From the IMG/VR virus record IMGVR_UViG_3300046169_000125, positions 1-60,788 of that record: DNA of 60,788 nucleotides. One strand, given 5' to 3'. The position numbers and the translations under genes are program-made. Below are positions 4,494 through 45,692 of this stretch, in pieces (position 1 is the stretch's first letter; each line of letters opens with the position of its first letter). A model generated the notes under the pieces. It saw nothing but the letters and a program-made list of their open reading frames with translations. It made no database searches and was not told the DNA's origin. The stretch is from a virus. Taxonomy: Duplodnaviria; Caudoviricetes.

Positions 4494-5978
4494 GTGGCAC
4501 AAGGAACAATTACTCGTTTAACTTACGAAAGGCTTGGTATTTTACTAACCGATGCACCTGCGTACAAAGAGAGCGGAACTAAATATAGTGATTTAATACG
4601 TATACAAAGCATGGATTATAGCTTCTCTCATGAAGCTGCAGACATAAAGGCTGTTGGTAGTGATAAACTTGTTACGAGGAGCGGGCAAAGTCCAATTATT
4701 AGAGCCCCCTCCGTTGACTGCAATATAGAGTATTTATTTTCAGAAGGTCAAAATGAAATTGCCGCAGGTCTTCATATGGGTAGGAATGATAGTGTCATTA
4801 AAAATTATGTACAAACATCTTCTACTGATGATATTAATATACTTGTTGTTGCTTCTGATGAAGATAGCCATAAAGATCTTTCTTTCTTAAATAGTGAGTC
4901 TGATTTTGAAGATTATAATGTTATTGGTATTGGTAATGCATTTTTAATTAATTATGCATATAATGCTTCGGTCGGTTCATTACCAACCAGTTCTTTAAGT
5001 TTTGCTGCGAGCAACATGAAGTATGACGCATACTCTGCAAGCAGTCGACCAACTTTACCCGCTGTAAAGCTTGGCGTGAACAACATTAACTCTACTGAGG
5101 AGGTTCATTTAGATGTATCAAAAATAAAAGACCATAGCCACGATCGAGAAAATCAAGGTTATGTATTTGATCAACATTTTAATCCAGAAGTGTCTGCGAT
5201 AAAGCCTGGTGACATAAAAATAACGATGACAAAACAAAGCGGAGGAAGGGGGGGTGCAATTCTTGATTCTTTGTCTGCAGCAGTTCAAGACATATCTATT
5301 GATCTGCCTATACCTCGCCAAGATATTTATGGAATGGGTAGTAATTATGTTTTTAATAGAAAATTAAAGCTTCCAATAATTGGCTCGCTATCTGTAGGCA
5401 TGGTTCTTAGGGGATATGCTCAAGATCAGGTTGACTCGTTTTTAACTCAAACGGATGTATATAATATACTCGTTGAACATACCACGCCAAAAAGAGTTGT
5501 TGGTAATCAAGGGGAAACTTTGGTTGAGAATCTTTATTATTATATTGCTGTTGAAAATAATGACTGGAGGAGAGTTTTAATGGAGTCGTTTACTCATTCC
5601 ATCTCTGGAAGTGTTGGAGACACTGCTTTTAGTAATGACGGTAACTTTTATTATGTTTGTATAAACGGTTTTACTTGGGGAAGAATAAATTTAACAAATT
5701 CAAGTGAGTCGTTTTCTGGTAATATTGCTTATTCTTATAATTTTATATACGTTCTGGATGGAACTACTTGGAAAAAATTCTCCGTCAATACAATTGACTT
5801 TGATTCTATTGGCTCAGGAACCGCATTAAATATTTCTTCGGGTATAGCTTTTGAAGTCAATAGAGCTCAATTAAAAAATCAGTCGTACAGTCATGCGATT
5901 GGATCTAATGTTCAAGTAGATAGCGCTATGACTTTTGATGTTACTAAAACCGACGGACTGAGGTTGTATTTTAAATAA
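4494..5978 (+). CDS. Tail tube-fold paralogue with inserted aromatic repeat domain
   Basis: RIQSMDYSFS, IGIGNAFLINY..NASVGSLPT and IKPGDI match 6041..7360; C-terminal insert with three Y.YV...W.R repeats. Confidence 0.7.
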   Translation: MAQGTITRLTYERLGILLTDAPAYKESGTKYSDLIRIQSMDYSFSHEAADIKAVGSDKLVTRSGQSPIIRAPSVDCNIEYLFSEGQNEIAAGLHMGRNDSVIKNYVQTSSTDDINILVVASDEDSHKDLSFLNSESDFEDYNVIGIGNAFLINYAYNASVGSLPTSSLSFAASNMKYDAYSASSRPTLPAVKLGVNNINSTEEVHLDVSKIKDHSHDRENQGYVFDQHFNPEVSAIKPGDIKITMTKQSGGRGGAILDSLSAAVQDISIDLPIPRQDIYGMGSNYVFNRKLKLPIIGSLSVGMVLRGYAQDQVDSFLTQTDVYNILVEHTTPKRVVGNQGETLVENLYYYIAVENNDWRRVLMESFTHSISGSVGDTAFSNDGNFYYVCINGFTWGRINLTNSSESFSGNIAYSYNFIYVLDGTTWKKFSVNTIDFDSIGSGTALNISSGIAFEVNRAQLKNQSYSHAIGSNVQVDSAMTFDVTKTDGLRLYFK

Positions 5979-6040: not shown

Positions 6041-7360
6041 TTATGCGAAATACTGGTGAATGCCAGTTGCGTTTCTTGATCCTGAAATAAAGATTCCGTT
6101 AGATTGATCTTCTGGACCTCCGACTTGAGCTGTAAACGTAAGATCTACGCTTTTATTATCTCCAATTGAAGAGCTGAACGATTCTCCTTCGAGTCGAGCT
6201 CCTTTCACTGTATACTGCATTGCGATTGGACCATTTCCGCTTTGAGTGGGCTCTCTCATTGTAAAAACAAGATCGTGTTCCTCTTGATCAAATAGCATGT
6301 CTGCAACGTTTCCTTCTTTGAGGTCAGAAAGAATTGCGTTTACTGACACAGATATATTTACTGGAAAATCTGTTACTTTTGCGTATCCATATGGATTTCC
6401 AAGACGATTAATGTTACTGCGGCTTATTGGCAAATCAATGCTAAAGCTTTGAACATGAGCAGATCCAGAACCTTCATAATCATCTGTAGGGTCAGCAGAA
6501 GGTAAAAGTTCGAATTCACCTGCGCGTCCTCCAGCTCCAAGCTTTAAGGATATATCTCCTGGGCGCAAGCATGAAATTCCCTCATCTCCAAAACCTTCAT
6601 TATTTCCTGTCCAGACGTCATCTGTACTTCCCCAGATTCCATCATTACCAATTAAAGCCTCTCCTTTTCCGCTAACGGCATCTGGAAGAGAGAACTCAAC
6701 ACCTTCTACCTCATAACCGTGCGTTGTGTTGATAGAGGGAAGTGTTTTGTTTTCAGTTCCGTTGTAACTACGAAGATTTAAACCGTCAATCGTTACACTT
6801 GCTGTTGGCATTCCTCCTACAGCCGCCTCGATCGAGTAATTAGATACAAATCCATTACCAAGCGCAATAACGCTTTTTGAGGCGTCAGCACTGGCATTGT
6901 TTACTGCATCTGTACCTTCTGGCGTTGTTAAAATGAAAAAGTTTTTACCGCCTGGGTTTTCAGCAGAATTTGATTTGCCAAGAAGTATTTCGTCTGCTAG
7001 GGATGAAGTTTCACCACCAACATCAAAACCTAAAAGGCGCTCATTAATTCCATTCGTTAAGTAGTAAGAAAAATCTAGCGTTACTGTGGGCGGTTCAATT
7101 GATACACTATCAATACGAGCGAGTTGGCCAAATTGATTTACATCTTGACGATTAACGCTAAAACTATAGTTTGCGCTTTGCACTCGACGAAGCTGCATAA
7201 TTCCTGTTTTAACATCTCCTCCTGCAGCTGTAGCGGCGGTTTGTGCGGTGCCTTGCGTTGCAAAACCTGTTCCGTTTACTGTGAAGTGATGACCTGTGGC
7301 GTCTACTGTACCAGCGTATAATGCCTCACTTTGATAAATTACTCTTGCTCTATTTGCCAT
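6041..7360 (-). CDS. Major tail tube protein (internally duplicated fold)
   Basis: Follows neck genes; acidic and G/S-rich; two halves RRVQSANYSFSVNRQDVNQFG and AHVQSFSIDLPISRSNINRLG; own promoter and terminator. Confidence 0.75.
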   Translation of the reverse strand: MANRARVIYQSEALYAGTVDATGHHFTVNGTGFATQGTAQTAATAAGGDVKTGIMQLRRVQSANYSFSVNRQDVNQFGQLARIDSVSIEPPTVTLDFSYYLTNGINERLLGFDVGGETSSLADEILLGKSNSAENPGGKNFFILTTPEGTDAVNNASADASKSVIALGNGFVSNYSIEAAVGGMPTASVTIDGLNLRSYNGTENKTLPSINTTHGYEVEGVEFSLPDAVSGKGEALIGNDGIWGSTDDVWTGNNEGFGDEGISCLRPGDISLKLGAGGRAGEFELLPSADPTDDYEGSGSAHVQSFSIDLPISRSNINRLGNPYGYAKVTDFPVNISVSVNAILSDLKEGNVADMLFDQEEHDLVFTMREPTQSGNGPIAMQYTVKGARLEGESFSSSIGDNKSVDLTFTAQVGGPEDQSNGIFISGSRNATGIHQYFA

Positions 7361-11564: not shown

Positions 11565-14500
11565 ATGGCTATTGATCTTGATGTACATGGTAATACAAAA
11601 CCGCTTGAAGCGGCGGTACAGGCGGCTGTAAATAGAATTCGTCGTCAACCAATTAAAATTACGGTTGATGACAAGGGCGCCACCCAGCCATTGGGCAACA
11701 TGAAGCGTGGTGCTGATGAGTTTACCAAATCGATGGAAGCGGCGAATGCTCGTATTCTTGCGTTCGGTGCGAGTATGGCAATCATAAATGGTGTGGCTAA
11801 TGCATTCAAGGGTATGGTCAAAAACCTTGTTGAGGTTGAGAAAGCTATGGCTGACGTTAATGTGGTCATGGGTTTGAGCGCTCAAAACTTGGAAAAATTT
11901 AGTGATGGACTTTTTAAAGTGGCAAAAGAAACTGGTGCGGCATTCAGGGTTGCTGCAGATGCCGCTACAGAATATGCTCGTCAGGGCTTGGGTGTTGAAG
12001 AATCTCTAAAAAGAACGAGAGACGCTTTGGTTCTTACTCGCTTGACTGGCATGGACTCTGCCGAAGCAGTAAAATCCTTGACTGCCGCGATGAACACATA
12101 CGGCACACAAATCAAAGATACCACGCAATTGGTTAGTAAGTTTGCTGCTGTTGATGTTAAGTTTGCGGTTAGCGCCCAAGATTTTGCGGACGCTATTTCT
12201 CGTACTGGTCAATCTGCTCAAAGCGCTGGGGTGAGCATTGACGAGCTTGTGGGTATTGTAACTGCTGCTCAGCAAAAAACTGCTCGTGGTGGTGCGGTTA
12301 TTGGTAATGCGTTGAAAACAATTTTCACAAAAACAGGAAAAACCGATACTCTCAATCAACTTGAAAATTTAGGAATCGCAGTTCGCGATCTTGAGGGAAA
12401 TACAATTGGTGCACAACGCATACTGAATGATCTCGCCAATACGTTTGATACTCTTAGTGCTGCGCAAAAAGCTCAGATTACTCAAACAATGGGCGGTTTG
12501 TTTCACATCAATATTTTGAAAGCTGTTTTGAGTGACGCCGCAAAACAAAATGGTATCATGGCTGAGGCTACCAGAATATCTGCTGGTGCTACAGATGAAG
12601 CTATACAAAAGAATGAAGAGTTGCGCAAAACAATGTCTGCGGTTGCCACAGAAACAGGGCTCGCAATCAAACAAGTTAGTACTCAAATAGGTGAAATAGC
12701 ACTTGCTCCAGGAATGGAAAAGATTCTCAACTCTGTTAAAAGTCTGGCAGAAGGATTGAGTGGAGTGTTGGGAGATGGAGAAAGTACTGGAAGTAGTTTT
12801 GCCACTGGCCTTCTTAAAGGTATTGGTAATGTTATTACTGGGCCAGGACTTGTTGTTCTCGCGGGTGTATTTTTTAAATTATTTGGTCAAGCATTAAAGT
12901 TTACAAAAGAAAGCTTGACATCGTTGGTCGGCGTAACAACCGAAAAACAAAAACAAAAAGCCATACAAACAAGCTTGGTTGCACTGTTTGGTCAAAATGC
13001 AGCGCTCAACAAAGAAATGTTGCGTACTGATATTGGTCGCACCGAAAAAGAAAAAATCATACTAGGCCTACTCAAGGCGCAAGTTGTAGAAGCTAAAGCG
13101 TTGAATACTTTAACTGCTGGCATGGCTGGCACATTGTATCGAAAAGGGTATGGCGCAAATTTAACACCTGTTGGTAAAAAAGCAAGTGGACACATTCCAA
13201 ATTATGCAAATCCAGAACGCGCACAAGCTGCGCAGGGTGGATATGCCGCTGGAAGTATTCGAAGTATGAACATGCCTGGCGAAGGCCCAGTCATATACAA
13301 CAGCGCAGAAACAGTCAAAAATTTCGCAGGCTTTAAACAACCCGCAATCATGCCACCACAATCCAGCAAGGCTGGAAAAAATTATCAACAAGCATTTGGT
13401 AATATACATGGATTCGATCCATATGCTGCGGGGGGATATATACCAAATTTTAAGAAATCGAAAGCGAAAACTAAGGAAAAAGCTGGGCCGCCTATTAATT
13501 TAAATAGTTTGTTTGGGTCGCAAATTAAATCTATGGGAGTTTTGTTAGGTTTTGGGTCAGAGGGACCCGCTAAAGGACAAAAGTATAGTCAAACCTATAA
13601 TAGTTTACCTCCAAATGCTAAAGCGGTGTTAAAGAAGAAAAATATAGTTGATCGTGGTACATCGCAAGTAGTTGCAAAATTGCCAACCAAGGCTGTTTAC
13701 GAAGTAACCGAAGCGGACGTTGGAAAGATTGGAGGGGTTTTAGGAAAAAGCGAATTAGAGAAAAAGCTTTATCACTATGTTGGCCGCCCTTTTGATAAAT
13801 TTTCTCAAGCCATTGGAATGGATATGTTTGGAGGTAAAGTTGGTAAAGCTGGAATTAATGTTTTAAAGACACATATGGAAGGTTCTGTGCTGGGAGGTTT
13901 GTTTGAATCTGCAGTGAGGGGATCTTTAGATAATAAAAAAGTTAAAGATAGTCAAGCTCCTTTTGATTTCACCGGTTCTAACGCTGAGAATATTGCGGGG
14001 TTCATGGGTAACAAGAACTTGAGCCTGATTGAGGCAAAGTATAATTTATCTGCAGCAAAAGGAGGAGGTATTCCAAAAAAAGTTTTAAATTATATTTATA
14101 AAAATTCTAAGGGCTCAACTGAAGTTAGTCATACCAGTGACTTAATAACAAAAAAAGGTGAAGATATTTATGTGGGCGCCGAGAAATTTGACAATACAAA
14201 TAAAGATCAAATTAACAGGCTGGAGGAAGCGGAGCTTCCTACTACTTGGCAAAAATTAAATAAACTATTTAACGCTAGCGGTTTTATTCCCAACTTCGCT
14301 GACCCATTATCTGATGCAATAGGCCGAGAAAAAGCGGCTGGCGTTCCAGTTTCACAAATTCGTGTGGGCTCACACGGCGCACTCATGAGCAAAGGAAATC
14401 CCCTCGGCCTCGGCGTAACCAATACACATGATGAGCCAAATGGTTTGCGTGATGTGTTTGGTGCGAATGGATTTGTGCCGAATTACTTTAACCCCCTAGA

Positions 14501-17500
14501 CGGTATAAAAAGTTCTATAGCAAACACAAAATTTGGACAAAACTGGGAAAAAGCCACTACAGAACACGCCAAAAAAATAGAGAAGTTAAATCGCAGAATA
14601 GAGCAAAGAGTACAAGCTATACAAAAACATAATCAAGAGCTGTCGACACTTACCAAGGGTACTAGCGAGTATAGGGCAGCACAATCAAAACTTAAAAGTA
14701 CTACAAGTAATCTAGATAAAACCAGAGCGAAATTGAGTGTTCTTGAAAAATCTTCAGCCACAGGAATCGGAGGTAGAATGGGAAGGTTATCTTCTGGCCT
14801 TGGGAGGGCTTTTTCAGGAAACACTGGTATGGCAATGATGATGGGAGCACCAATGGCCGCGGGTTTTTTACAACAAGGTGGAATGGGTGCTCAAGGAGGT
14901 AATCAAAGTATGTATGCCGCAGGAGGAGCCTTAACAGGCGCTGCTTCTGGAGCAATGATGGCAAGTGTGATCGCGCCAATGTTTGGACCCGGCGCACCGC
15001 TGGTGATAGCGCTCGGGGGTGCTGTTGGAGCTTATCAGGGTTGGGCGAGTGCAACCGAAGAAAATACAAAAGCTTTAAAAAATGCAGAATTAAAAAGGCA
15101 ACAAGGGGTTGTTTCCTCTTTTGTGACTACAAGTCCAAAGTTTATGCAAAAATTTTCTAAAAACATATTTGATGATATGAGTCAAGAGGGTAAGCAGGTT
15201 ATGAAGATGGCTGCTCCAAAGTACACAGCTACTACGCCTCCCGATATCAGTGAAAAGGATTTTCTTACAAGGGGCCCGAATAACCCAATATTTAAAATGA
15301 AAATACCTTTTATTTCTGACCTTTTTGGCCCGTCAGCAGGAGAGATAGATCAGATCACGAAATATCGTGAGCAAGGAGATCAACAAAATGAATTTCAAAA
15401 AATTCAAAAATACCAAGTCGGCACTATGAAAAAAGCTATAGGCTCTATGGGTGATGAAGAGTTTTTGCTACCATCTTATATAAAAGATAAAGAAGGGAAA
15501 ATACAAAAACAGGATCAACCTGAACGACAAAAAGCATCTGATTATTTAAAGAAATTAGAAAAAATAGATTTTTTTAAAGTTGAGGATACAGGAGATGTAA
15601 AAAGAATTGAGGCGTTAAGATCTGCATTGTATAAAATTTATCAAGAACAAATCACTGCAGAGCACGATCAAAGTGAAGCAATAATTCTACAGTTAAATAT
15701 TCAAAAAGTCATGCTTGAATCTCAAAAAAGAGCAAAGCAAGCACAGTTTAATATTTCTTCCTCCATGCAAGCCCAAGCAAGTAATCTATCTTTAATGGAA
15801 AAAACAATGGGTGGATTTGCAACCGAACAACAGAAGGCTCAATTTAAATATATTGGATCAATAAATAAAGCCGCCGAAACTTATGCATCTTCTGCGCAGC
15901 AAGCTGAGAACGCTTTTGAGTCTAATATGTTGGGGGTACTTAAGGATGATGATGTAAAAAGTAAAGTCAAAACCGCACTAGCAAAGAGAATTAAGGAAAG
16001 GGGCGGCGGAAAAGTAGACGCAAATAAACTTGATGTTTCAGATGAATTAATAAATCTTTCCCAAGAAGAAAGGCAGGAGATGTATAAAGAATTGAAACTT
16101 GGAGACGACATTACTAAAAATATAGAAAACCAAGTTACTGCTCGAGAAAACGCATTAAGCCTTGCAGCGCAGCAAGTAAATCAATCAAACTCAATTGCAC
16201 AGTCAGAATTTAGAGTAAATGACGCTATTGCTAGAAGAAAAGATCTAATAAGTAATTTAAAGTCCGGCGGAGCCTTAATGTCTCAAGCGCTTGGTCATGC
16301 TCAAGCTATGCGAGGAATGGATGCACAAGTGGGCGCTGCACAAAGATTAACTAACGTAGGACCCGGATATCAAACACGTGCCGAGCAAGAAGCTTTTCAA
16401 ATGAGGGAAAAACAAATTGCGCTAGAAGATCAAATAAAAACAATTCGAGAAAACGCCACAATAGAGCTTCAAAAAGAGCAAACTAATCTTGAAGAAATAA
16501 AAATGGAGGAGCAGCAACTTCTAGATTTAAAAGCAAAAAGAGATAGCTTTGTTGGGGCTGGTGCAGAACTTGATGAAGATGACTTAGCTACTTTAAATGG
16601 TTTAATTCAGACTGAAGATAAAAGAAATCAAGCAAAAGAAAAAACACAAAATGCTATAGACAATATACTCAAGAAATCAGAAAAAGAAGTATCTACCGCC
16701 GAAAAACTATTAGCTTTAGAAGAAAAAAGATTAGCCGCAAAGCGCGCGCATGAAACTGGCCCAGGTGCATTTGGCAGAGGAATGAGTGACACCACGAAAT
16801 CAATGCGCGAACAAGTTAAAATGATGGATTACGAACTTGGCAAAAGAATACCAAGCGCTTTTGCCGACGGACTTGCCGGAGCAATGACCGAAGCAATCAA
16901 TGGAACAAAAAGCCTAAAAGATGCATTGACTGATGCCGCGGTTGGATTTCTTGGAATGATTCAACAAGCAATGATGCAAAAAATGGCCTATCAAATGGTG
17001 GGTGCAACGGGATTATTCTCTCGAGGTGGAAATGTTCGCAAATATTCAAAGGGTGGTGGGGTGCCTGCAATGGTAAGCAATGGTGAATATGTTATGGGTC
17101 GCGATGCAGTAAATAAATATGGCGGATCATTCATGCACGGAATGAATGCTGGCGGACGCATACCTGGATTTGCTAGTGGAGGGTCGGTAGAAAATGATTT
17201 ATTATCAAAAGGAAAAATAAGAAGAGAAGGTGCGCCAGGAGGTCCCGCAGCGCAAGGTTCTGCACTGGCATCTAATTTTGGAGGAGGACGAGGATTTGAT
17301 TCTGGTAGATTATATCAAAGAAAAGCAATGAGCGGCTCTTTTTACGCTCAATCTGGAAATGTAGGATTGGGAGAAGATACAAGCGCAATACAAGCAATAC
17401 TTTCAGAAGAAGAACGTCTTCGTCAAGAAGCTGAAGCAAAACGGCAAGCCAAAAAAGCAAAACGTAGACAGTTGCTGGGAATGGTTGCGAGTATTGGATT

Positions 17501-18047
17501 GATGTATGGATTGGGTAAAATGAATTTGTTTGGGTCAAAAACTCCTCAAGGAAGTATGTCTGCTCCGACCCGACCAGGTAGCGTTGGAGCTTGGTTTCTT
17601 AACCCAACAAACAGATACATGGGCGGCCCAATTCGCAAATACGCCAGCGGCGGACACATCGCAGGAAAATCTGGCATCGACCAAATTCCCGCAATGCTCA
17701 GTGAGGGAGAATATGTTATTCGTGCAAGTAGCGCTCGCCAAATTGGCAAGCCAATGCTTGATCAAATAAATGCAGGTAAATTTAATGAAGGAGGACCTGT
17801 CAGCGAAATCGGAGGTTCAAGTGAAACCGGATCGACTGGTGGCAACACAAACAACATTAGTATTTCTGTGAATATGGAACGTGGTTCGTCAAATAAGCAG
17901 CAACAACAAGATGATTCAAGCGGGCAAAATCCTGCAGATAAATCAAATGAAGAGCAAAGTAATGCTAAGCTTGCAGAACGCATCAAACAACAAGTAGTTT
18001 CCGTAATTGTGGAGGAACAACGTCCAGGAGGTTTATTGAGTGATTAA
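11565..18047 (+). CDS. Tail tape measure protein (TP901-type N-terminal core) with inserted domains
   Basis: 2160 aa; TP901 core (EYARQG, AVSAQDFADAISRTG, GAVIGNALKTIF); A/G-rich hydrophobic segments; two PAM.S.GEYV modules; followed by distal tail genes. Confidence 0.95.
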   Translation: MAIDLDVHGNTKPLEAAVQAAVNRIRRQPIKITVDDKGATQPLGNMKRGADEFTKSMEAANARILAFGASMAIINGVANAFKGMVKNLVEVEKAMADVNVVMGLSAQNLEKFSDGLFKVAKETGAAFRVAADAATEYARQGLGVEESLKRTRDALVLTRLTGMDSAEAVKSLTAAMNTYGTQIKDTTQLVSKFAAVDVKFAVSAQDFADAISRTGQSAQSAGVSIDELVGIVTAAQQKTARGGAVIGNALKTIFTKTGKTDTLNQLENLGIAVRDLEGNTIGAQRILNDLANTFDTLSAAQKAQITQTMGGLFHINILKAVLSDAAKQNGIMAEATRISAGATDEAIQKNEELRKTMSAVATETGLAIKQVSTQIGEIALAPGMEKILNSVKSLAEGLSGVLGDGESTGSSFATGLLKGIGNVITGPGLVVLAGVFFKLFGQALKFTKESLTSLVGVTTEKQKQKAIQTSLVALFGQNAALNKEMLRTDIGRTEKEKIILGLLKAQVVEAKALNTLTAGMAGTLYRKGYGANLTPVGKKASGHIPNYANPERAQAAQGGYAAGSIRSMNMPGEGPVIYNSAETVKNFAGFKQPAIMPPQSSKAGKNYQQAFGNIHGFDPYAAGGYIPNFKKSKAKTKEKAGPPINLNSLFGSQIKSMGVLLGFGSEGPAKGQKYSQTYNSLPPNAKAVLKKKNIVDRGTSQVVAKLPTKAVYEVTEADVGKIGGVLGKSELEKKLYHYVGRPFDKFSQAIGMDMFGGKVGKAGINVLKTHMEGSVLGGLFESAVRGSLDNKKVKDSQAPFDFTGSNAENIAGFMGNKNLSLIEAKYNLSAAKGGGIPKKVLNYIYKNSKGSTEVSHTSDLITKKGEDIYVGAEKFDNTNKDQINRLEEAELPTTWQKLNKLFNASGFIPNFADPLSDAIGREKAAGVPVSQIRVGSHGALMSKGNPLGLGVTNTHDEPNGLRDVFGANGFVPNYFNPLDGIKSSIANTKFGQNWEKATTEHAKKIEKLNRRIEQRVQAIQKHNQELSTLTKGTSEYRAAQSKLKSTTSNLDKTRAKLSVLEKSSATGIGGRMGRLSSGLGRAFSGNTGMAMMMGAPMAAGFLQQGGMGAQGGNQSMYAAGGALTGAASGAMMASVIAPMFGPGAPLVIALGGAVGAYQGWASATEENTKALKNAELKRQQGVVSSFVTTSPKFMQKFSKNIFDDMSQEGKQVMKMAAPKYTATTPPDISEKDFLTRGPNNPIFKMKIPFISDLFGPSAGEIDQITKYREQGDQQNEFQKIQKYQVGTMKKAIGSMGDEEFLLPSYIKDKEGKIQKQDQPERQKASDYLKKLEKIDFFKVEDTGDVKRIEALRSALYKIYQEQITAEHDQSEAIILQLNIQKVMLESQKRAKQAQFNISSSMQAQASNLSLMEKTMGGFATEQQKAQFKYIGSINKAAETYASSAQQAENAFESNMLGVLKDDDVKSKVKTALAKRIKERGGGKVDANKLDVSDELINLSQEERQEMYKELKLGDDITKNIENQVTARENALSLAAQQVNQSNSIAQSEFRVNDAIARRKDLISNLKSGGALMSQALGHAQAMRGMDAQVGAAQRLTNVGPGYQTRAEQEAFQMREKQIALEDQIKTIRENATIELQKEQTNLEEIKMEEQQLLDLKAKRDSFVGAGAELDEDDLATLNGLIQTEDKRNQAKEKTQNAIDNILKKSEKEVSTAEKLLALEEKRLAAKRAHETGPGAFGRGMSDTTKSMREQVKMMDYELGKRIPSAFADGLAGAMTEAINGTKSLKDALTDAAVGFLGMIQQAMMQKMAYQMVGATGLFSRGGNVRKYSKGGGVPAMVSNGEYVMGRDAVNKYGGSFMHGMNAGGRIPGFASGGSVENDLLSKGKIRREGAPGGPAAQGSALASNFGGGRGFDSGRLYQRKAMSGSFYAQSGNVGLGEDTSAIQAILSEEERLRQEAEAKRQAKKAKRRQLLGMVASIGLMYGLGKMNLFGSKTPQGSMSAPTRPGSVGAWFLNPTNRYMGGPIRKYASGGHIAGKSGIDQIPAMLSEGEYVIRASSARQIGKPMLDQINAGKFNEGGPVSEIGGSSETGSTGGNTNNISISVNMERGSSNKQQQQDDSSGQNPADKSNEEQSNAKLAERIKQQVVSVIVEEQRPGGLLSD

Positions 18048-23561: not shown

Positions 23562-26500
23562 GTGAAAACGGTATATCTACATGGAGAGCTAGGCAAACGC
23601 TTTGGTAAAAAGTGGGAACTTGCTGTGAACAATATCGAGGAGGCGTTTTCTGCTATAGAGGCAAATTGCGAAGGATTTTTTAATTATGTGTACAAGTCTT
23701 CAGCTAAAGGTATTGATTATATTATACTCACAAAAGATCCAAAATCTATAAAAGATAAGGATGATTTACGCGAAAATATAATTGATGAAAAATTATCGAA
23801 AGTAAATTCAAAACAAAAAGAAATACATCTTTTGAGTCCTGTTGGTGGGTCTGCTGTTTTTGGGGTTGGTGGATCTCTTGCGTTGTTAAAGGTAGGGGGA
23901 GGTTTAACGACTCTTGGTATGGTTGTTGCTTCTGTGGCAATATCTTTTGCAATGCAAGCTTTGACTAAACCGCCAAAGCCACCCCAGCGAAAAGATTCAA
24001 TAAGTACAAAATCATTTTTAATTTCAGGAGGTATAACTAGGCAAGCTCAAGGAATAGCTGTTCCTTTGGGTTATGGGCGTTTAAAAATTGGCCCAACAAA
24101 CATCGCATCAAAAAAAAGTAGTAAAAAACTGTCTAAATATAATTCTGGAAGTTCGGCAACTTTGGAAAGTTATACAGAGTCAGAGTTTATAGACTTACTT
24201 TCCGAAGGTCCGATACATGGCTTTGTTGATCAATACGGAGTAACTCTGCCCGCTGATGATGTTTTTGAGGGAATATACTTAAATGATGTACAGGTAAGAA
24301 ACTCGGCCTCCCCGGGAGAACAGGTTGGTACATATAATTATATATTAAATGAAAATCAAAAAAATTCTCAAGGTAGGCCTAAATATAAAATTGGATCAGA
24401 CGAAGAGAGTATAATATTGACCAAAGGTGTGTTTCACGTAAGGGAATACGACGTTATATTGTATGGACCTAGTCCATATACCACAGCTGATACAGCAAAC
24501 GAAGCTATAGAAAAGGGTTCGAAGGTAGCGTCTCATTTTGTTTCAAATTCATCAGTAGATGAAATAACTATTTCGATTCGCACAGAATTATATGTACAGA
24601 ATATGGAGACGGGGGGAATGAATTCAAATACTGTTTTGTTTGCGATTTTAGTTTCAAGAGGCAATAAAGATTTTAATATTCTTGAGCCTGAATCTGGGTG
24701 TATAATGATTACAAAAAAAGGTGATGGCCTCAGTTGGGATGAAGGCATCAACAGATTTGAAATGTCAGGAATTGCTACCTCTACTTATCAATTTGATATA
24801 AGCTTTAAGGTCGATAGAAATTTAGATATTTCTGACGCTAGTGGAGGAATAACTTTTAAGATAATTAAAATTTCTCCTGAATACGATCCCTCTGTTAAGG
24901 GTAGTTCTGGGGGTGTAGGAAGGGTAAGGTCTATTCAATTGTCACATGTAGAGGAAAAAATAAGTGAAAATTTAATATATCCACATAGTGCTATGGTTAA
25001 AATATTAGTTGATAGTAAAAACTTTTCAAGTATACCTGATCGATCATATCACTTGAAGTTGAAGAAGGTTGTTATTCCTGATAATTATGATCCGATATCC
25101 AGAAAGTATACCGGACCTTGGAATGGACTATTTAAGGGTCAGTTGCACGGAAATATGTCTGTACATTCAATAGCTGATTCAGATAAATATTGGACGGATA
25201 ATCCTGCTTGGATATTTTTTGATTTATTGTATAACGCTAGATATGGAGTGGGTAAATATGGACTCGAGGAGGAGAATGTTGATAAGTGGCAATTATATAA
25301 AATTGCAAAATACTGTGATGAGCTTGTAGAGACTGATTACCCTATTGAGACTGAAAATGGTCAACCGATTGCATTTACATGTTTAAATAATTTGAATGAA
25401 TCTGTTGAACCTAATCAATTACAAATTAAAATAAAATATAGTGAAACAGAAATAATAGCTCCAACCCCTGAACCTCCAAGCTATGATCATAGTACATACG
25501 AGGTTATTAATGGAAATTATACGTACTCACAAGCCAAAGCAGATGCAATATCTAGAGGTGGAAGACTTGCTATTATAAGAAATGCTCAAGAAAGTCAACA
25601 GGTAATTACCGCCTACAACTCCGGCATTTCGCACGGATTGGGAAGTTTTTACCGTGCATGGATTGGTTTGGAGCAGGTTGGTTTGGATAATTCAAGCTGG
25701 ACTTGGTCAGACGGTTCAAGTTTAACTTATACAAATTGGGGGGGGAATAACCCAAATAACGATTCGGAAACTAGGGGTTTAATTGGTTGGGATGGGAAAC
25801 ATAGAACAACATGGAATGATGCACAGTCATCCACGGTAGCTTCTTATATACTTGAAAAAAAGGGTGTGGATGTTAATAATCCAACACCAACCCTACTACA
25901 ATTAAATAAAGAAAAATTTATTTCTAAATTCGGCGAAGGTAACTCACTTAAGGGTAAAAAGGTGGCATTTTTTATACCAAAAACATCCAGCTCTCTTACA
26001 GAGGAGTCTTTGATCGAAAAAGCTGTTGCTAGAGAAGGTAAAATGAAAATTGAAGAAAGAATGATTTTAAGTTCAGACCCGTCAACATTTAGTGTGATTG
26101 TTTCTGGGCCAAAAATAGAGGATAATAAAGGTTCGTTTGATTTTGTAGTTGGTGCATGCGCTGTCCAATTAAACCACCCTGTAGTTGAACCTAGATTCAC
26201 TGCAAATTTATACCTAACTGACAGAGCAGAGGCTTTAGAGGTTATTAAAAATTTAGCATCAATGTTTCGCGGAATATCTGCATACTCTGCCGGTAAAATA
26301 TTGGCAATTCAAGATTCTCAGAAAAAACCAATACAACTTTTTAATAATTCAAATGTCGATAACAACGGTTTTATTTATATGGGTGTGCAGAAAAACAAGA
26401 GGATTACAGCCTCTTTAGTGAGGTTTAATAATTCTGTAAAAAATTATAAGCCCGATTTAGTTTATGAAGAAGATTCCGAAGCTATACAAAAATTTGGCTA

Positions 26501-28430
26501 CATAGAGAATGAAACAATGGCCCTTGGTGTAACTTCTGAAAGTCAAGCCCGCAGATTTGCAAAATGGATACTTCTTACGTCTCAATTTGAAACCGAAACA
26601 ATAACCTTTAACACTGGTCAAGAAGCTTCTTATCTGTTTCCTGGGTGCATATTTGAAGTTTCTGACGAGTTAAGAGCTGGACAAACAAAAAGTGGTAGGA
26701 TTTTGGATATCGCTCCTTCTCGAAAACTCGAAATAAATGGAGTACAGTATACTCACAATGACCCGTATATACTTATAGATAAATCTGTTAAAGATGATCC
26801 TGTATTATCAAGGGTGGAACTTACGGTTTGTGTAGGGCTAGAAAATTCAAATCAAGAAAACTTAGACTTAAGAGCTCCATCAGAGGCTTCTCAGGAAGAT
26901 CAGGATCAAGAAATTGAATCGATTTTTACACCTCAAATTTATAAGTTTGATGCGTTATTGAAAGAATCTGATAATATTAAAAAGGGACCAAGGGGACAAA
27001 AAACGATTGCTTGCGAATTATTGCTTAAAATACCATTGGAGATTGACCTTGCAAAAAATAGAATAAAAAAATATAACCATAATTTTGATTCTGGTGAAAA
27101 AATAATTTTAAGAAGCGAAGGTGTTCTTCCTGGCGGTTTACAAGAAGACAGGGTATACTTTGTTGTTAATAAAACAAAAAATACATTTCAAATATCACTT
27201 GATGACCCGTCTTCCGTGCCCCAGTATCAGGTTGTTAATATAATTGATGAAGGAAAAGATTTTCTTGGTGTTGATGGAGGGGATCATTATTTTTGTCCGT
27301 TTTCCATACTTGGTGTTAATAATGTAAGAACACGAGAGGCGTTAGATCAAGTATCTATAGGCTCCAGTTATTCAATAAAAGGTCTAATTGGCGCTTCTTC
27401 CAAGGGGGGATTGGGTTATCAAAACTTAATACAAAACCTTGAAATAGAGGGTTCGTTAACTGATGGTTGGGGAGTCTCTTCGATATTTGGATATATAAAT
27501 ATCGAAAATAATGACGGTTGGGTGTATTCTGTTCAGTTAAATGAGTGGATTTTTCTTAAAAATAAAATAGAGAATAATTCTGGTTGGTTCTATTTAGATT
27601 CTTTGGGTTGGATTTACTTGAAGAGTGATGGAGATAATTATTTGTGGTATATATCTTCACAGGATGAATGGGTTCGCTCTGAAAAATATTCTAATAAGTT
27701 TTATAGATTTCAGCAATCTACAAGTGGCATATCTAGTGGAGACTCAAAAAAAATAAATAACAAGACAATATTTGTTAAGAACATATTTTCTAATCACGGT
27801 TACTTCTTTTCGTTTCTTGAAAACTCTTCAGATATTACTTCAACTAATCCAAGTTCATCGTTTAATACTACTATATCTGAAGTTAATCCAGGAATGAGTT
27901 CATCAATTATTTCTGACGTAATATCAGTTACTTCAGAGGAGTCTTTACAAGGTCAGGACTCAATAAGAATAATATTTCAATCCGGGCACGGGCTAGATTT
28001 AAGGAGTAATAATATTGTTAATATATCAGGTTTTTCTAGCGATAATTCTGCTCTTAACTCCCATATAAATCAACAAGGTATTGGTACTATATTTATTAAT
28101 TCAACCGTGATAGAGTTAGTAAACTCAAATTCTGCCGCGACCTTAATCGGTTCTTCTACGATTTCTTCAAAAGGTACATTAAGTTTCATTAACTCGGCGA
28201 AAAGTAAAGTAGAAAGAATGCTTGAATCTCAATTATTTAGAGCAGTAAGCGTAAAAGAATTGTCAGAAAATAAATATGAAGTTGTTGGTTTAGAATATAA
28301 TAGTAGTAAATTTAATGCTGTAGATAAAAAAGGCGCAATTAAGAAACCTCATTTGCCTATTCCCCCACAAGCAGATATTGCTGCCCCAACTGCCCCAGCC
28401 GGATTAACGTTGAATAATTTAACCTTGTAA
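23562..28430 (+). CDS. Tail tip / host specificity protein: gpI-gpJ fusion with C-type lectin insert
   Basis: N-term VYLHGELGKRFG (gpI-like); VPLGYGR, LSEGPI, YPHSA, WTDNPAW, YCDELV, EPRFTAN, SESQARRFAKW (gpJ); CTL motifs WIGL, W.DGS, YTNW, WND. Confidence 0.92.
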   Translation: MKTVYLHGELGKRFGKKWELAVNNIEEAFSAIEANCEGFFNYVYKSSAKGIDYIILTKDPKSIKDKDDLRENIIDEKLSKVNSKQKEIHLLSPVGGSAVFGVGGSLALLKVGGGLTTLGMVVASVAISFAMQALTKPPKPPQRKDSISTKSFLISGGITRQAQGIAVPLGYGRLKIGPTNIASKKSSKKLSKYNSGSSATLESYTESEFIDLLSEGPIHGFVDQYGVTLPADDVFEGIYLNDVQVRNSASPGEQVGTYNYILNENQKNSQGRPKYKIGSDEESIILTKGVFHVREYDVILYGPSPYTTADTANEAIEKGSKVASHFVSNSSVDEITISIRTELYVQNMETGGMNSNTVLFAILVSRGNKDFNILEPESGCIMITKKGDGLSWDEGINRFEMSGIATSTYQFDISFKVDRNLDISDASGGITFKIIKISPEYDPSVKGSSGGVGRVRSIQLSHVEEKISENLIYPHSAMVKILVDSKNFSSIPDRSYHLKLKKVVIPDNYDPISRKYTGPWNGLFKGQLHGNMSVHSIADSDKYWTDNPAWIFFDLLYNARYGVGKYGLEEENVDKWQLYKIAKYCDELVETDYPIETENGQPIAFTCLNNLNESVEPNQLQIKIKYSETEIIAPTPEPPSYDHSTYEVINGNYTYSQAKADAISRGGRLAIIRNAQESQQVITAYNSGISHGLGSFYRAWIGLEQVGLDNSSWTWSDGSSLTYTNWGGNNPNNDSETRGLIGWDGKHRTTWNDAQSSTVASYILEKKGVDVNNPTPTLLQLNKEKFISKFGEGNSLKGKKVAFFIPKTSSSLTEESLIEKAVAREGKMKIEERMILSSDPSTFSVIVSGPKIEDNKGSFDFVVGACAVQLNHPVVEPRFTANLYLTDRAEALEVIKNLASMFRGISAYSAGKILAIQDSQKKPIQLFNNSNVDNNGFIYMGVQKNKRITASLVRFNNSVKNYKPDLVYEEDSEAIQKFGYIENETMALGVTSESQARRFAKWILLTSQFETETITFNTGQEASYLFPGCIFEVSDELRAGQTKSGRILDIAPSRKLEINGVQYTHNDPYILIDKSVKDDPVLSRVELTVCVGLENSNQENLDLRAPSEASQEDQDQEIESIFTPQIYKFDALLKESDNIKKGPRGQKTIACELLLKIPLEIDLAKNRIKKYNHNFDSGEKIILRSEGVLPGGLQEDRVYFVVNKTKNTFQISLDDPSSVPQYQVVNIIDEGKDFLGVDGGDHYFCPFSILGVNNVRTREALDQVSIGSSYSIKGLIGASSKGGLGYQNLIQNLEIEGSLTDGWGVSSIFGYINIENNDGWVYSVQLNEWIFLKNKIENNSGWFYLDSLGWIYLKSDGDNYLWYISSQDEWVRSEKYSNKFYRFQQSTSGISSGDSKKINNKTIFVKNIFSNHGYFFSFLENSSDITSTNPSSSFNTTISEVNPGMSSSIISDVISVTSEESLQGQDSIRIIFQSGHGLDLRSNNIVNISGFSSDNSALNSHINQQGIGTIFINSTVIELVNSNSAATLIGSSTISSKGTLSFINSAKSKVERMLESQLFRAVSVKELSENKYEVVGLEYNSSKFNAVDKKGAIKKPHLPIPPQADIAAPTAPAGLTLNNLTL

Positions 28431-28434
28431 GGAA

Positions 28435-31400
28435 ATGAAATCAACATCAATATCTATAGAGTTTATCGTTAACGACTTAAGTGCGAATTATGAAATTATT
28501 GGCACTTCAGATAATTATTCTTTTCAGCATAAAATGGGGAAGGGGTCAAGTTTGGTTGACTCTATTGGGGAAAGCGCTATACAAATTATACCTCTAAGGG
28601 GAAACTACGGGCAGTTTGAAATAAAGCTTTTTGCTGTAAGTGATATTGGTATCAGGTCTAGTTTTGTAACTAGCTTTATAACTGTTAACCCACCAATATT
28701 TGATGGAACCTTTACATTTAATAATTTAAGAATATCCGATTTAAAAGGAGCGGTGCAGGATAGTTTTTTTGTAGATCAATACCCCTCTGCAACTGAGAAT
28801 AAATTAACTACTTTTCAACGCTTTCAAGGCAAGGATGTAGAAATATCCTGGGAGTTGATTCCTCCTAGCGGTCATGCGAGGGAGAGTCAATCTTTATCAA
28901 CAGAATTATTGTCGGATACTTTGTTTTCTGGTTTCATGGTTAATATAATAAGTGATGGTCAGGTTATTGATGCGTCTTCTTATAGCGGTGAAAATCTTGC
29001 AATACAATCCCTTTCAGAACAATTGAATACAACCACTGGTAATGTCGCCGAAAATCTTCAAGGTTTTCGAGATTTTTCATTAATTCTGGATAGAGATGTA
29101 TTTGATGGATTTAGTTTATCTAGGAATATTGGCCTTGAGATTGTTGCTGTTGATAATTTTGGCTCAACTGCTACAGGTAGTATTAGTGGTAGTAGTATAG
29201 AAGCCTCTTTCACCACTTTTATTTCAAACTTGAACGGTTCAGATATGTCTTTCTCCTGGGGTGCAACACAGCAAGATTATAGTGGAGTGATCATTGACGT
29301 TGTTGCTATACCTGCAGATAGAGAACTGTTTGATAGTGGTAATTTAAATGCCAATATGAACTTTTTTAATGATTTGAATTCAGCGATATATGGAGAAATA
29401 TCGTGGGATGAAAATTTTAATTACTCTTCTGGAGATTTTGTATCAATAAGTGGGAGTGGTTTTCAGGCAAATATTGATCATACTGGTACTTACGCAAATT
29501 CACCACAAAGTGATTCTGTGAATTGGACTAATTATGGGGAGTTCATTGATTTTTCTTTTGCAAGAGAAACTGTAAGCGATTTAAAGTTTAATCAAGAACA
29601 ATTTTTTGGGTACAAGTATTATTATACGTTTGAATTATTTGATAGTTTTGGTGCAAGCGATGTAATGCTATTATCTGAAGAAGGCTCTCTAAGTCCACAA
29701 GGAGAGTCAGGCTCTTTCTTGTTTCCATATCAATCAGAACTAAAAATTAAAAACTTAAGATACCTAGAAAGAAAAGATGACTTAGTTTTTAATTGGGATA
29801 TCGTAGATCAAGATGATAATTTAATTGATCTAATCCAGTATCGATTGGCATTTAAGAACGGTGAGTTGCCTGCTATATTAGGATTGAGTGGCTCTCTGTA
29901 TGATATTAATACGGATCAAATTTTAACTGGATTAACAGAAGGTAATAACTCTATATCTCTATCTGAAGATGAAAACTTTGAAACCTCAACTACTTTTGGT
30001 TTACCAACGGCTAAGTTATTTGAAACATTTGAGTATACAAGGAATTTAAATAATTCAATATATAGTACGGGAGGTTTTCCTAGTAATTATGAAGCCTTGA
30101 ATTATAGCGGAAGCTATATCTCTGGCGACCATGTTGTTGATTCGTCAAATAATGTTTACAAAAACATGATTGATACTTCTTTTAGAGATCCGTTAGTTCA
30201 ACCCTTTTATGATGATTGGTCTAAAAAAATAAATTATATTTCAGGCGAATCTTTTATTTATGGAGCGTTTCTCTATCAAGCTAATCAGGAGTTTGGGCCT
30301 CGGTATACAGATGGGCTATTTGATTTTTCTAAAACTTATTATTCTGGAGATTTAGTTATATCTCCAAACGAGCACTATGAAAACTTTAATTCCGGAAGTG
30401 GATACGCGTTTAATGATTTAGTTGTACATAATTCAACGTTATATAGGAGTCTTCAGAATCAAGAAAGCGGTTATTCTGTTACTCCTGGATCTGATCACAC
30501 CAAGTGGAAAATCACCTCTTTATTTAATGGAGTAGATTGTGATGTATATAAAGCCCTCGACTCTTCATCAGGGCTAATACCCGTGAACCTACAAATTTAC
30601 GAGTCGGGTGTGTTTGTTGATAAATGGGAAATATCTACACCCGAAACATTTAGTGGTTCACAAAATTACATACAAACTTATAGTCAGCAGATTAGTGAGT
30701 GGACAAGTGGTCAAGATTTTTTCACTGGAGATTTTGTTGTTTATTCAAATGATATATGGAGCGGCGTTCAGAATAGTGGGCCAAATCAAGGTTCTGGCTC
30801 TATTGCTCCAGGTACAAATTCTCAATTTTGGACAGATCAAACTGGCGGACAGGATATAATTTTTTCATACAATTCTGGGGATCTTGTATACAGTAATGGT
30901 ACTGTATATAAAGCAGGCAGTGATAACCCTGTTGGAGCACCAATAGCTGCAATTAATGAACCTGGCGAAGAATCTCAGTCAACATACGAAGGAACTGAGT
31001 GGATTCCATATTGGCAACAAGAAGTCCAGTATCAAGATACAGTTTTTGGTCATGCGGGAATACCTCAAAGCGGCAAAAGAAGTGTTGGAATTGAACTTGC
31101 TATTGTTGATAGAGAAGGAGATATATTTAGTTATCAGAAGTTGAATGCAGAAAACCCTCCTCCTGTTATATTGAGTAGTGGATTTAATGTTGATAGCATA
31201 AGTGAGGCGTCTAAGGTTAAGCTTAATTTTAATTATAATCTAGGGTTTCAAGAGAAAACAACCAAGGTATATTTGTATAGGTCAGAAAACCCAGTTTTTG
31301 ATATTATTGATGAAGATGGATACCCTTTAACGAGTACAGGTACTGCGTTTGTTAAAAGTGTTATTGGCGCAGGAGATTCAACATTTGGACAAAACATAAC

Positions 31401-34400
31401 ACAAATAATTGACGAACCGCCAATTCCAAGGATTGATGGAGTAGATAAAATAACAGGATACTATTATAAAATATTACCTTTTGATGATTTTGGTAGTGGT
31501 GAGCTCTATAATGCAAATGATAATATGGGGGATTTGGAGAAAGTAATTGTTTATCCGACTAGATATAACAGTCCTAACCCTAATTCTGTTCCTGGAAGAG
31601 TTTTGCGCGCAGATCCAACTGATGGTGAAGGTGGCGTGCCTGGACCTATTATTGATTTTTCAGGCTCAACAGCTTTCGAGAATTTCTTTTTAAATTGGAA
31701 GGCTCCGGGGTCAGAATATGAAACTGGGATAAATACCTTATTGAAGGAAAAACAAAATGATATTGATCATTACGAGGTTTGGGCTTGGACGGGCAGCGTA
31801 CTGTATACTGGTGATGGCCAGGGTAATATTTCACCTTTTTCACAAGCAGATAACAATAATGGGCATAGAAAAATAAATGGAGTCGCTTATAGTACAGGTA
31901 TTATACCAACAGAATCTATTGACCCCGCATTAAATATATTTGGCGCTAGGAATATTTTTGATGTCTCAGCAAATTCGCCGTCTTTAGAGGCTGTATATCC
32001 AGGCACAACAAGTAAAAATGAAAATTTTTGGATTAGAGCTGTTGATTTTGCTGGTAATAAAAGTCCATTTACTGGATCATTAATTAATGATAACGATAAT
32101 ATTTCAGGACTATCTTTGACTCCTGGATTGGCGAGCGCCACAGATGTTGCAGATTTTGAAATAGGAATGACTGAAAAATTTGGAAATAGTATTGCTTTGA
32201 TTCCCTCGAACCCTTTCTCTGATGATGTAGGGAGTATATCATGGGTTGATCATGTTTTGTATTTTAGGGGGACGGGATATTTTATTAATGGCTCTAGTAC
32301 AAATAGTGGATATGTTTGGTGGGATATAAGCGAAAAACCGAATCAATCTAATTACGAATATCAAGGCTTAAGAGATATTAAATATAGTGGCGATTATAAA
32401 GTATCTGACGCTCATCCTCAGGGTGGTTATAACGCAAGTAATGAATATATTTCTGGTTTGGATGGTTTTCAGGATATAGATTTTATTATTGCAAGAAATG
32501 ATAACGGTACTGCTTCTCCTGCGTTTTCCTCATTTCCGAACGCTTTAATTGGTACCGCTAATATTGCAGAAGCGGCAATAGTGAGCGCAAAAATTAACGA
32601 CTTATCTGCAGATAAAATAACCTCATCCAAAATTACTAGTGCGGATATACAAATAAGTACATCTGGGAGTGGGGCTGGGGTAATTCGATCTGACGGATTT
32701 ACGGGAATCGATTCTAATCAAAACCGTTCAGGTTTTTACATAAGTGGAGATGGAACTTTTGCGTTTCAAGGAGGAGGAAGTAGCTTAAGTCTTGAAGATG
32801 ACACTTTAACCCTTAGGGGTAAACTTCGGCAAACAAATGGCTTTGATTATGATTTTGTAGACTTAAATGTTTCTCCTAGTTATTTCAATTATATCGAAGC
32901 TAGAGGTTATGAGGCTGGTACCGCTGGAGTTGATACATTCATTCCTGATGATAATTCTCCAACTAGTATTGAAATAATTTCAACTTTTAGGAATAGCTCT
33001 GTAACTCAAACAGGTGTTCGTTTTAGAATGGATGTTTTGTCTGGAGATAATAGGCGTCCCGTGTTTGGTTATGACGAGTTTACTGGTAGCGGACAATATA
33101 ATGTTTCCGGTTTTGAGTATAATCCAAACAACTTTATTGATGATTCCAATAATTCCTCGACTAAAATAGCTAGTGGAAGTTTTGCTTTAGGGAAAAGATT
33201 AGATTCCACTGCACAGCTTAATGGGTTTGATTATTTAATTGATGAAGCTTTTCCAGGTTCTGGGCTTGCTGATTCTGTGGTGTTATATGTTTCAGGTCTA
33301 TACTCAACTTACGAAAGGTCTTTCACTATAACAAGAATTAATGATGGTAGATTTGGGGATCCAGGAGTAACTCCAACATACCGAGGTCCTTGGAATAATA
33401 CAAATATTTACAACTTCACTCCATCAACAATAGATAATCCTGGGCGAGGTGATATTGTTAGTTTTGGGCAGAATCATGCAGATAGAACACCGACTGATTT
33501 AATTAATAGTAACTATTTTATAGCGAATCAAGATAATTTTAGTGGACAGAAGCCCGTTGTTTCTGGAAGTGTTAATTCATTATACTGGTCTCAGTTTGGT
33601 TCTGAGTTAGAAAATGTAGCCACCGATTTACTTCTTACTAAAGATGCGTTTATAACAGAAAAATTAACAATGGGGGCAAATAATGGCCCCGCGGATATTC
33701 CTCATAGTGGAATAATCGTTTCAGAAGGTTTCACTGGTGGACTGTTGAATGTAAATACTCTACCATATCAAGAATTGGATCCTTCAATAGAAAACTACGA
33801 AACGCCAGGTTTTCTTCTAGCTCGAAAAGATGGAGGAGTTGTTTTTGATGTTGGGGGAACGGGAAAAGCTGGGCAAACTGGATACATTAGATTTAATAGT
33901 CATACAGGGAAATTAGAAATCGCCGGTTCGTTTATTAATAATACTGTTTATGATGAAAGTTTGCTATATACAGGAAGTTTTGCAAGTTTTCAGGAAGCTG
34001 ATAATTTAACAAGTTTTATTGGTGGTGGGTATAATAACACATTATCAACTGAACCTGGTGGAAATTATAAATATTTTGAGAACTTAGGGTCAGCTATACT
34101 TGGGGGAGCATGGAATACGATGGATAGTAGATTTTCCGCTATTGCTGGCGGTTATAGCGGATACCTTGCAGATAATTTTTCGTTCATTGGTGCTGGGTAT
34201 GGAAATTCTATGCCCCTCGAAGAACCTGGGGATCATCAAGGCGCAAACTTTATTGGTGGAGGTATAGAAAATATTATAAGTGGGGGAGCGTCACAGAGTA
34301 TACTTAATGGTATTGAAAATAAAATAAATCAAACAGAAGGTAAATATTTAAATAATGAATCCGTAAAGTTTGACGAAGATCAAGGGTGGTTAAGTTCTAG

Positions 34401-40866: not shown

Positions 40867-41285
40867 AATAAATAATCACCACACAATCCAAAGCAATTTT
40901 TACTAACATAATTTCTTGTGTCTTGCATAACTAAAACACTTTTTTGACAAACGCTCTTTTGTGGATATGTCCACACGTACCCTTTTGATGTTAATGTTCG
41001 GTCATCTTCTTGATGAAAGAAAATATTGAGTGAATCAAAATGTATTAATGTAAATAACGCTTCGTCGTTTTTGCAATGTATCCATAATTTGTTTTTGTTT
41101 TGTATGAGAAAACTTAGTGAGCATGGATACTGGGGGCTGTCGTGACCAAGCCATAGTTGTTTGTGTGCCCAAACGTCAACCTCTACATCGTATCCTTTAT
41201 CAATCGCTTCAATGATATACTTAGGATCATTTTCGCGCTCAGGGTTCGGGCCCTCAATGTTTCCTCTATGAGCTATTAATTTCAT
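40863..41285 (-). CDS. Glycerophosphodiester phosphodiesterase-like protein (short)
   Basis: IAHRGN, EN, DVEVDVW, LGHD, WIHCKN, LTSKG..WTYP, C.DY. Confidence 0.8.
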   Translation of the reverse strand: MKLIAHRGNIEGPNPERENDPKYIIEAIDKGYDVEVDVWAHKQLWLGHDSPQYPCSLSFLIQNKNKLWIHCKNDEALFTLIHFDSLNIFFHQEDDRTLTSKGYVWTYPQKSVCQKSVLVMQDTRNYVSKNCFGLCGDYLL

Positions 41286-45691: not shown

Positions 45692-45692
45692 T

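Follow-up and report, generated by a model that had tools for sequence, protein, structure and literature searches.

An exchangeable, nuclease-like module fenced by a conserved peptide motif within the tape measure protein from an uncultured marine phage

Introduction

Tape measure proteins (TMPs) are usually taken as rulers and channel formers that contain an occasional cell-wall hydrolase. The TMP gene of the IMG/VR virus record IMGVR_UViG_3300046169_000125 raises the question of whether such a protein can also carry interchangeable cargo of another kind. The stretch of DNA analyzed here, referred to below as the window, comprises 60,788 nucleotides (nt) of that record, whose completeness is about 43% according to CheckV. 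A preliminary description made from the sequence alone had proposed that this TMP contains a basic, globular segment with the active-site signature of PD-(D/E)xK nucleases, and that copies of a short motif on both sides of it delimit exchangeable cassettes. In the present work we ask whether this segment is exchanged between phages, where its boundaries lie, and what kind of protein it may be.

Results

A repeated peptide motif divides the tape measure protein into modules

The TMP consists of 2160 amino acids (aa). The motif G-x-[IV]-P-N-[FY], four copies of which had been reported after the TP901 core, was found at aa 542, 624, 906, and 969, and the pieces between the copies are designated modules A, B, and C. 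The features of this part of the window are as follows.

11565..18047, plus strand: TMP gene, 2160 aa, TP901 family, with matches to PF10145, TIGR01760, and TMP PHROGs
11790..12773, plus strand: TP901-type TMP core, aa 76-403 (TIGR01760); the N-terminal 530 aa are conserved
13188..13205, plus strand: fence motif 1, GHIPNY, aa 542-547
13206..13433, plus strand: module A, 76 aa, 60-100% identical across the 120 listed homologues; no known family
13434..13451, plus strand: fence motif 2, GYIPNF, aa 624-629; bounds the exchange on the left
13452..14279, plus strand: module B, 276 aa; a basic, nuclease-like alpha/beta segment that is polymorphic
14280..14297, plus strand: fence motif 3, GFIPNF, aa 906-911; bounds the exchange on the right
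14298..14468, plus strand: module C, 57 aa, conserved island, 69-100% identical across the 120 listed homologues; no known family
14469..14486, plus strand: fence motif 4, GFVPNY, aa 969-974; the next variable stretch starts here

Apart from these four copies, the motif does not occur in any of the six frames of the window. The number of copies expected by chance from the composition of the TMP is 0.002, and at least one match was obtained in 43 of 20000 shuffles. A homologue search with TMP aa 530-985 gave 792 matches, 120 of which were listed, and the homologue counts given here refer to these 120. All of them are long TMP-like proteins, 116 with a precomputed PF10145 match, and every one contains the motif, most often in four copies (92 proteins) and otherwise in five (19), six (7), seven (1), or three (1), while up to ten copies were present in more distant TMPs retrieved by an exhaustive profile search. 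The pieces between the motifs measure 74-78 aa (A), 228-348 aa (B), and 57-59 aa (C). The first 530 aa of the TMP are 59-100% identical in 118 of the 119 other listed homologues, the remaining one being a truncated protein without a match (BLASTP). The window's own module B was matched in only 36 of these 119, whereas the core and modules A and C were matched in nearly all.

To characterize the motif at the DNA level, its codons were compared among 64 non-redundant modules. The peptide is kept at motifs 2 and 3 in 64/64, and the third-codon positions vary freely; the proline of motif 2, for example, is encoded by CCT in 27, CCG in 17, CCA in 15, and CCC in 5 of the 64. Since synonymous positions are free within the motif codons, selection acts on the peptide and not on a DNA signal. 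As judged from these sequences, protein-level selection maintains the motif peptide, which marks where one module is joined to the next.

Exchange of module B at the joints

The DNA of related loci was compared with the window by blastn, and positions are given in nt of the TMP gene. The left flank was shared by 139 loci, a set that, like the other breakpoint counts, includes repeat fetches of the same contigs; similarity read through B in 11 of them and stopped in 128. In 116 of the 128 stopping loci the left break lies at nt 1883-1896, with motif 2 at nt 1870-1887. Of 109 loci, 108 regain similarity at nt 2687-2723, and 73 of them at nt 2714-2723, with motif 3 at nt 2716-2733. The block containing module C ends at nt 2921-2924 in 95 of 120 loci, with motif 4 at nt 2905-2922.

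One relative (locus L026) illustrates the exchange. It is collinear with the window, with 95% DNA identity over the 10.3 kb upstream, up to window nt 13457, and 84% over 6.7 kb downstream, and its breaks lie inside the TMP gene only. No DNA match was obtained across B, which is followed by 96% identity over 14286-14485 and a new break after motif 4. The B modules of the two phages share 23% protein identity. The same pattern was observed among 285 pairs of TMPs with cores at least 95% identical: the median identity of their B modules is 20%, 68% of the pairs fall below 30%, and core and B identity are nearly uncorrelated (Spearman 0.11). Breakpoints are located at the joints, and module B is exchanged between otherwise near-identical phages.

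At 40% identity the B modules form 14 types, yet all 120 join a single cluster (E<=1e-10, 60% coverage). On this sequence evidence the B modules are alleles of one domain family. The earlier proposal of exchangeable cassettes is borne out insofar as the segments between the motifs do vary in number (3-7 motifs) and identity, the identity of the module is uncoupled from that of the core, and the DNA breaks at the motifs; the notion of unrelated cassettes is ruled out, as all 120 B segments link into one family that is always present.

Additional modules and a second variable stretch

Some TMPs contain extra fenced modules of 86-94, 121-135, 244, or about 590 aa. The modules of 121-135 aa are A-like (hhalign probability 99.6%), while A and C are not repeats of each other (hhalign probability 0.2%). 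Neither A nor C has a Pfam or PHROG match, and a single-sequence search of PDB sequences returned only chance matches to influenza PA, which fall in module A (E 0.34). In the relatives' loci, extra fenced modules lie between B and C or before B (L016:4047-4343, L018:11198-11596, L030:8825-10024, L071:2750-3436) and measure 87-94, 121-135, or about 190-230 aa. None of these reaches the cut-off of a Pfam family; the module of L071 shows a weak match to Phage_ASH (E 7.4e-4).

A second variable stretch occupies window positions 14487-16745 (TMP aa 975 to about 1727) and begins exactly at motif 4. Near-identical relatives lose DNA similarity there and regain it where islands of conserved sequence cover gene nt about 5181-5618, 5623-5932, and 6058-6483.

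Six residues are invariant in an otherwise variable module

The segment between motifs 2 and 3 is, as described earlier, basic and unlike coiled coil, with an isoelectric point of 9.66 (aa 630-900) and a mixed alpha/beta AlphaFold2 model. The residues that had been singled out are also correctly placed: GGLFE starts at aa 777 and contains E781, APFD starts at 798 and ends on D801, and LIEAK starts at 821 and contains E823 and K825. In an L-INS-i alignment of the 120 B modules only six positions are fixed, namely G777, E781, D801, K825, and K839, each present in 120/120, and position 823, which is E in 91 and D in 29.

13893..14081, plus strand: invariant residues of module B (first nt of the codons: G777 13893, E781 13905, D801 13965, E823 14031, K825 14037, K839 14079)

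The acidic and lysine residues are arranged as E ... D ... (E/D)xK ... K, and the spacings are 20 and 22 residues. Among the 64 non-redundant B modules taken from the loci, the six residues are kept in 61-64/64, those of the E ... D ... (D/E)xK series in 62-64/64, and the few exceptions look like misalignments.

A model of aa 624-911 was computed with AlphaFold2 from an alignment of 46 modules and reached a mean predicted local distance difference test score (pLDDT) of 79.3 and a predicted template modelling score (pTM) of 0.65. In the models E781 lies in a helix, D801 immediately precedes a strand of two residues, E823 and K825 belong to a strand, and K839 to the helix that follows. The residues at the two ends, both motifs among them, are poorly ordered (block mean pLDDT about 52-53).

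An exhaustive profile search of 1.84 billion representatives retrieved 509 cluster representatives with E<=0.001, of which 247 reached E<=1e-10. In the top 150 matches, domain B is located at about residue 620-930 of long proteins. No stand-alone form was found among these 150, as the 13 matches shorter than 700 aa all carry fence motifs and most have recognizable TMP flanks; judging by these flanks and motifs, they are probably fragments.

Comparison of module B with PD-(D/E)xK nucleases

The arrangement in the models resembles in part that of minimal PD-(D/E)xK enzymes: the Glu is helical, the Asp opens a strand, (D/E)xK belongs to the strand after it, and another Lys is found in the helix that follows. 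A structure search with the model of B gave only matches of low Z (2.0-2.8), and 13 of the 50 matches listed are nucleases of the PD-(D/E)xK fold, a fold that is partly stated in the titles of the PDB entries. This is the only fold that recurs among these 50 matches. Members matched include VRR-NUC (4qbl, 4qbo), the protein of entry 3ijm, the Cas4-family ACE1 (9iab), and bunyavirus cap-snatching endonucleases (5ize, 7ewu).

Based on the alignment and the models, the most likely candidate for module B, with chances that we consider about even, would be a metal-dependent phosphodiesterase of predicted activity that has diverged very far from other enzymes of the PD-(D/E)xK kind. The best explanation of the locus as a whole, in which we place equally balanced confidence, would be a module bay in the TMP that contains a swapped, PD-(D/E)xK-like module B delivered by the tail.

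Several results weigh against this explanation. No family match was obtained for module B in Pfam (46 modules, E<=10), PHROGs, NCBIfam, or PDB sequences. The Mrr-like relationship suggested in the preliminary description found no support: Mrr_cat (PF04471) had no match on the window genome or in the 46 modules at E<=10, and hhalign of the 120 B modules against Mrr_cat (15 sequences) gave a probability of 0.1%. The same probability was obtained against VRR_NUC (PF08774, 7 sequences), a comparison of low power in which only the ExK stretch pairs locally. The combined AlphaFold and Foldseek check that had been suggested for the segment likewise returned nothing, neither for the B model in PDB or BFVD nor for a model of its C-terminal lobe in PDB. 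That lobe alone reached a pTM of 0.39 and so is not a free-standing core. Within the full model, a loop takes up the hydrophilic stretch between the helix with the Glu and the Asp, so that the first strand of the canonical core is absent, and there is an inserted helix. In about 10 kb to either side, no co-varying immunity-like or inhibitor gene was seen. Finally, a folded domain of 270 aa is too big for the lumen of an intact tail and would therefore have to travel unfolded. In addition, a PDB profile search with B returned just designed helical proteins (E 1.4), and the ESM Atlas gave no usable match. What stands of the proposed signature is the invariant order of residues and its modelled setting of helix, strand start, and strand; a profile link to a known PD-(D/E)xK family is missing, and structural matches are of low Z or absent.

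Genomic context and putative host

The assignment of the gene rests on PF10145 over TMP aa 120-311 (E 5.8e-27, 95.3 bits versus a cut-off of 33.2; Pfam) and TIGR01760 over aa 76-403 (E 2.2e-34, 119 bits versus a cut-off of 28.8; NCBIfam). Lambda-like tail-tip genes follow at its 3' side (phrog_14, phrog_18, the gpJ-like phrog_31, and then a fibre gene). With core models above their cut-offs and a very long gene upstream of tail-tip genes, the open reading frame (ORF) of 2160 aa is, on sequence grounds, a TMP of the TP901 family. Its C-terminal part also points in the direction of lambda.

17574..18041, plus strand: C-terminal ~155 aa of the TMP, homologous to the C-terminal part of lambda gpH

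These residues align to positions 923-1052 of phrog_24 (E 2e-5), a family in which positions 205-1055 are filled by lambda gpH aa 1-852. The names of relatives in the homologue search include Crocinitomicaceae and Bacteroidetes metagenome-assembled genomes (MAGs), and the sole genome match consists of two short contigs of one Flavobacteriaceae MAG. These names and this match point to marine Bacteroidota as hosts. A tblastn search with TMP aa 540-974 gave no match in a set of isolated phages from which near records may be missing. A lambda-like siphovirus of marine Bacteroidota is the best explanation for the origin of this TMP.

Further genes of the window were observed as follows.

23562-28430, plus strand: giant tail protein of 1622 aa, gpJ-like (phrog_31), with a phrog_32 tail-assembly part at its N-terminus
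28435-34851, plus strand: giant tail protein of 2138 aa, nearly without family match
37519-39426 (minus strand), 41266-42642 (minus strand), and 45579-46748 (plus strand): two glycosyltransferase-like ORFs (phrog_2170) and a HAD-hydrolase fusion among phage genes
48566-51151, plus strand: ORF of 861 aa matching phrog_15433, labelled 'tail sheath' (E 8.1e-48)

The last of these is odd beside a lambda-like, non-contractile tail module, and the match may reflect a mislabelled family or a second structure.

Discussion

Alternative explanations for module B

The first alternative to a nuclease-like module is that B is not an enzyme but the part of the TMP that, during formation of the DNA channel, meets a component of the host's envelope or inner membrane, or is met by defence or exclusion proteins of the host. 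In that case the charged residues that are invariant would hold the fold or a metal, and the alleles would track host variants or evade recognition. The polymorphism of B and its shuffling independently of the core are what is expected of a host-contact surface, and B has no nuclease family or clear fold match. In lambda, regions of the TMP are reported to decide the dependence on ManYZ and the escape from the TMP-binding defence SNIPE (10.1101/2025.11.03.685801), and gpH* is reported to form the trans-envelope channel and to have no known enzyme activity (PMC12617516). However, six residues of the kind used in catalysis (G, E, D, E/D, K, and K) remain invariant in a known active-site order and setting while nearly everything else changes, which is unusual for a pure binding surface, and one nuclease fold is over-represented among the structural matches of low Z. 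We regard a purely binding role as unlikely, while taking it seriously as a possibility.

Alternatively, B could be another enzyme built on Glu, Asp, and Lys, either an envelope-degrading hydrolase, like the peptidoglycan-hydrolase motifs in other TMPs, or a domain by which the TMP processes itself through cuts at the G-x-I-P-N-[FY] joints. Embedded muralytic motifs are described as the usual cargo of TMPs (PMC1796659; PMC12617516), and the TMPs of lambda and T5 are reported to be cleaved, the catalyst and exact site in lambda being given there as unknown (PMC12617516). The joints of the present TMP share an Asn that never varies, and the model shows little order there. Against this, neither the models nor the 46 modules match a lysozyme, transglycosylase, or peptidase family or fold, and the joints also flank modules A and C, both of which lack these residues; such an enzyme is distinctly improbable. 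A view of the motifs as DNA-level recombination signals, or as chance repeats without a role in the protein, could appeal to the clustering of breakpoints there, but it is highly improbable given the free third-codon positions beside a peptide kept in every non-redundant module, a chance expectation so far below one copy per protein, and conserved flanks A and C that alone would supply homology for recombination.

A possible route of delivery

If module B is indeed a swapped, PD-(D/E)xK-like module, its journey would be made inside the tail lumen, within the TMP. The TMP, which would fill the lumen, would exit first at ejection and carry B with it. On reaching the inner membrane or the space beyond it, B might then regain its fold and attack nucleic acid there. 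The diversity of B alleles could be maintained by host factors that bind, inhibit, or sense the module. One candidate for the passage of the membrane lies in the variable region after module C.

14760..15035, plus strand: Gly/Ala/Met-rich hydrophobic stretch, aa 1066-1157

GxxxG motifs start within it at aa 1069, 1108, 1121, 1125, 1151, and 1155, and the hydropathy peaks at aa 1118-1157. From its composition, this stretch is possibly a membrane-inserting segment of a glycine-zipper-like type, as in Tde1 of the type VI secretion system (T6SS) and in some TMPs. The T6SS DNase Tde1 is reported to cross the inner membrane of the target by means of a glycine-zipper segment similar to one in TMPs (PMC10240207). 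In a study on lambda, a TurboID fusion at the inner membrane is reported to label the TMP during injection, and the defence nuclease SNIPE to bind this TMP, with escape mapping to TMP regions (10.1101/2025.11.03.685801).

A broader and rather doubtful proposal is that many uncultured phages from aquatic habitats, forming a large group, have TMPs that serve as scaffolds for injection and contain a cargo bay, whose joints are release sites cut by the TMP or a protease. The freed polymorphic nuclease would act on nucleic acid of the host, of rival phages, or of defence systems, and its alleles would be kept by an arms race with inhibitors or sensors of the host, as in a phage counterpart of bacterial polymorphic toxins.

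Comparison with known systems

Among known TMPs, that of the Thermus phage P23-45 is reported to carry an active virion RNA polymerase that transcribes the pre-early genes (PMC10770324). The present protein would resemble this gp96 in having a nucleic-acid enzyme built into a TMP that acts in the cell right after ejection. The enzyme of gp96 differs in being a large, N-terminal RNA polymerase with shown activity, whereas module B is a small, internal, fenced, and polymorphic module that is only predicted to be an enzyme.

Polymorphic toxins, such as the CdiA-CT domains that follow the VENN motif and the tips of Rhs proteins, combine a delivery scaffold, a demarcation peptide, and a swapped domain that keeps its catalytic residues. 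The layout of the TMP bay resembles theirs by analogy of working, with a conserved scaffold, a demarcation motif, and a variable domain exchanged at that motif. Unlike these toxins, module B is internal, fenced on both sides, and part of a phage tail protein, and no adjacent co-varying immunity gene was seen in the roughly 10 kb to either side.

The likeness to lambda gpH consists in the C-terminal ~155 aa, which match the same region of phrog_24, and in the lambda-like tip genes that follow; lambda gpH has no module bay and no known enzyme. It is processed to gpH* and gpHC by a cut that is reported to lie in a Gly-rich region near Y-A-T-G-G-Y-V (PMC12617516). This peptide resembles Y-A-A-G-G-Y-I-P-N-F of the present TMP. 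A link between the fence motif and gpH was rejected, as the match covers just seven residues and falls short of significance (with a single comparison, E 0.087). Separately, two units of the form GG-x-[IV]-P-A-M-[LV]-S-x-G-E-Y-V, at window positions 17000-17200 and 17600-17780 (TMP aa about 1815-1880 and 2020-2075), resemble P-A-G-I-V-H-R-G-E-F-V-F of lambda gpH. The second unit lies inside the phrog_24 match, and the first and second fall in the best stretches of the phrog_3547 and phrog_13338 matches, respectively.

In the literature searched we found no description of TMP modules that are nuclease-like or fenced. Functional domains embedded in TMPs are known as such, and the fenced, swapped, nuclease-like module would, going by its sequence, add a new variation on them.

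Implications

If this explanation is true, the TMP would be a carrier of interchangeable effectors, in which a module resembling an active site is swapped between near-identical phages at joints defined by the protein. This bears on what enters the cell together with the DNA and on why host defence targets TMPs. The joint motif would provide a simple marker for module bays in metagenomes, and the 14 or more allele types of module B represent a ready panel for biochemistry.

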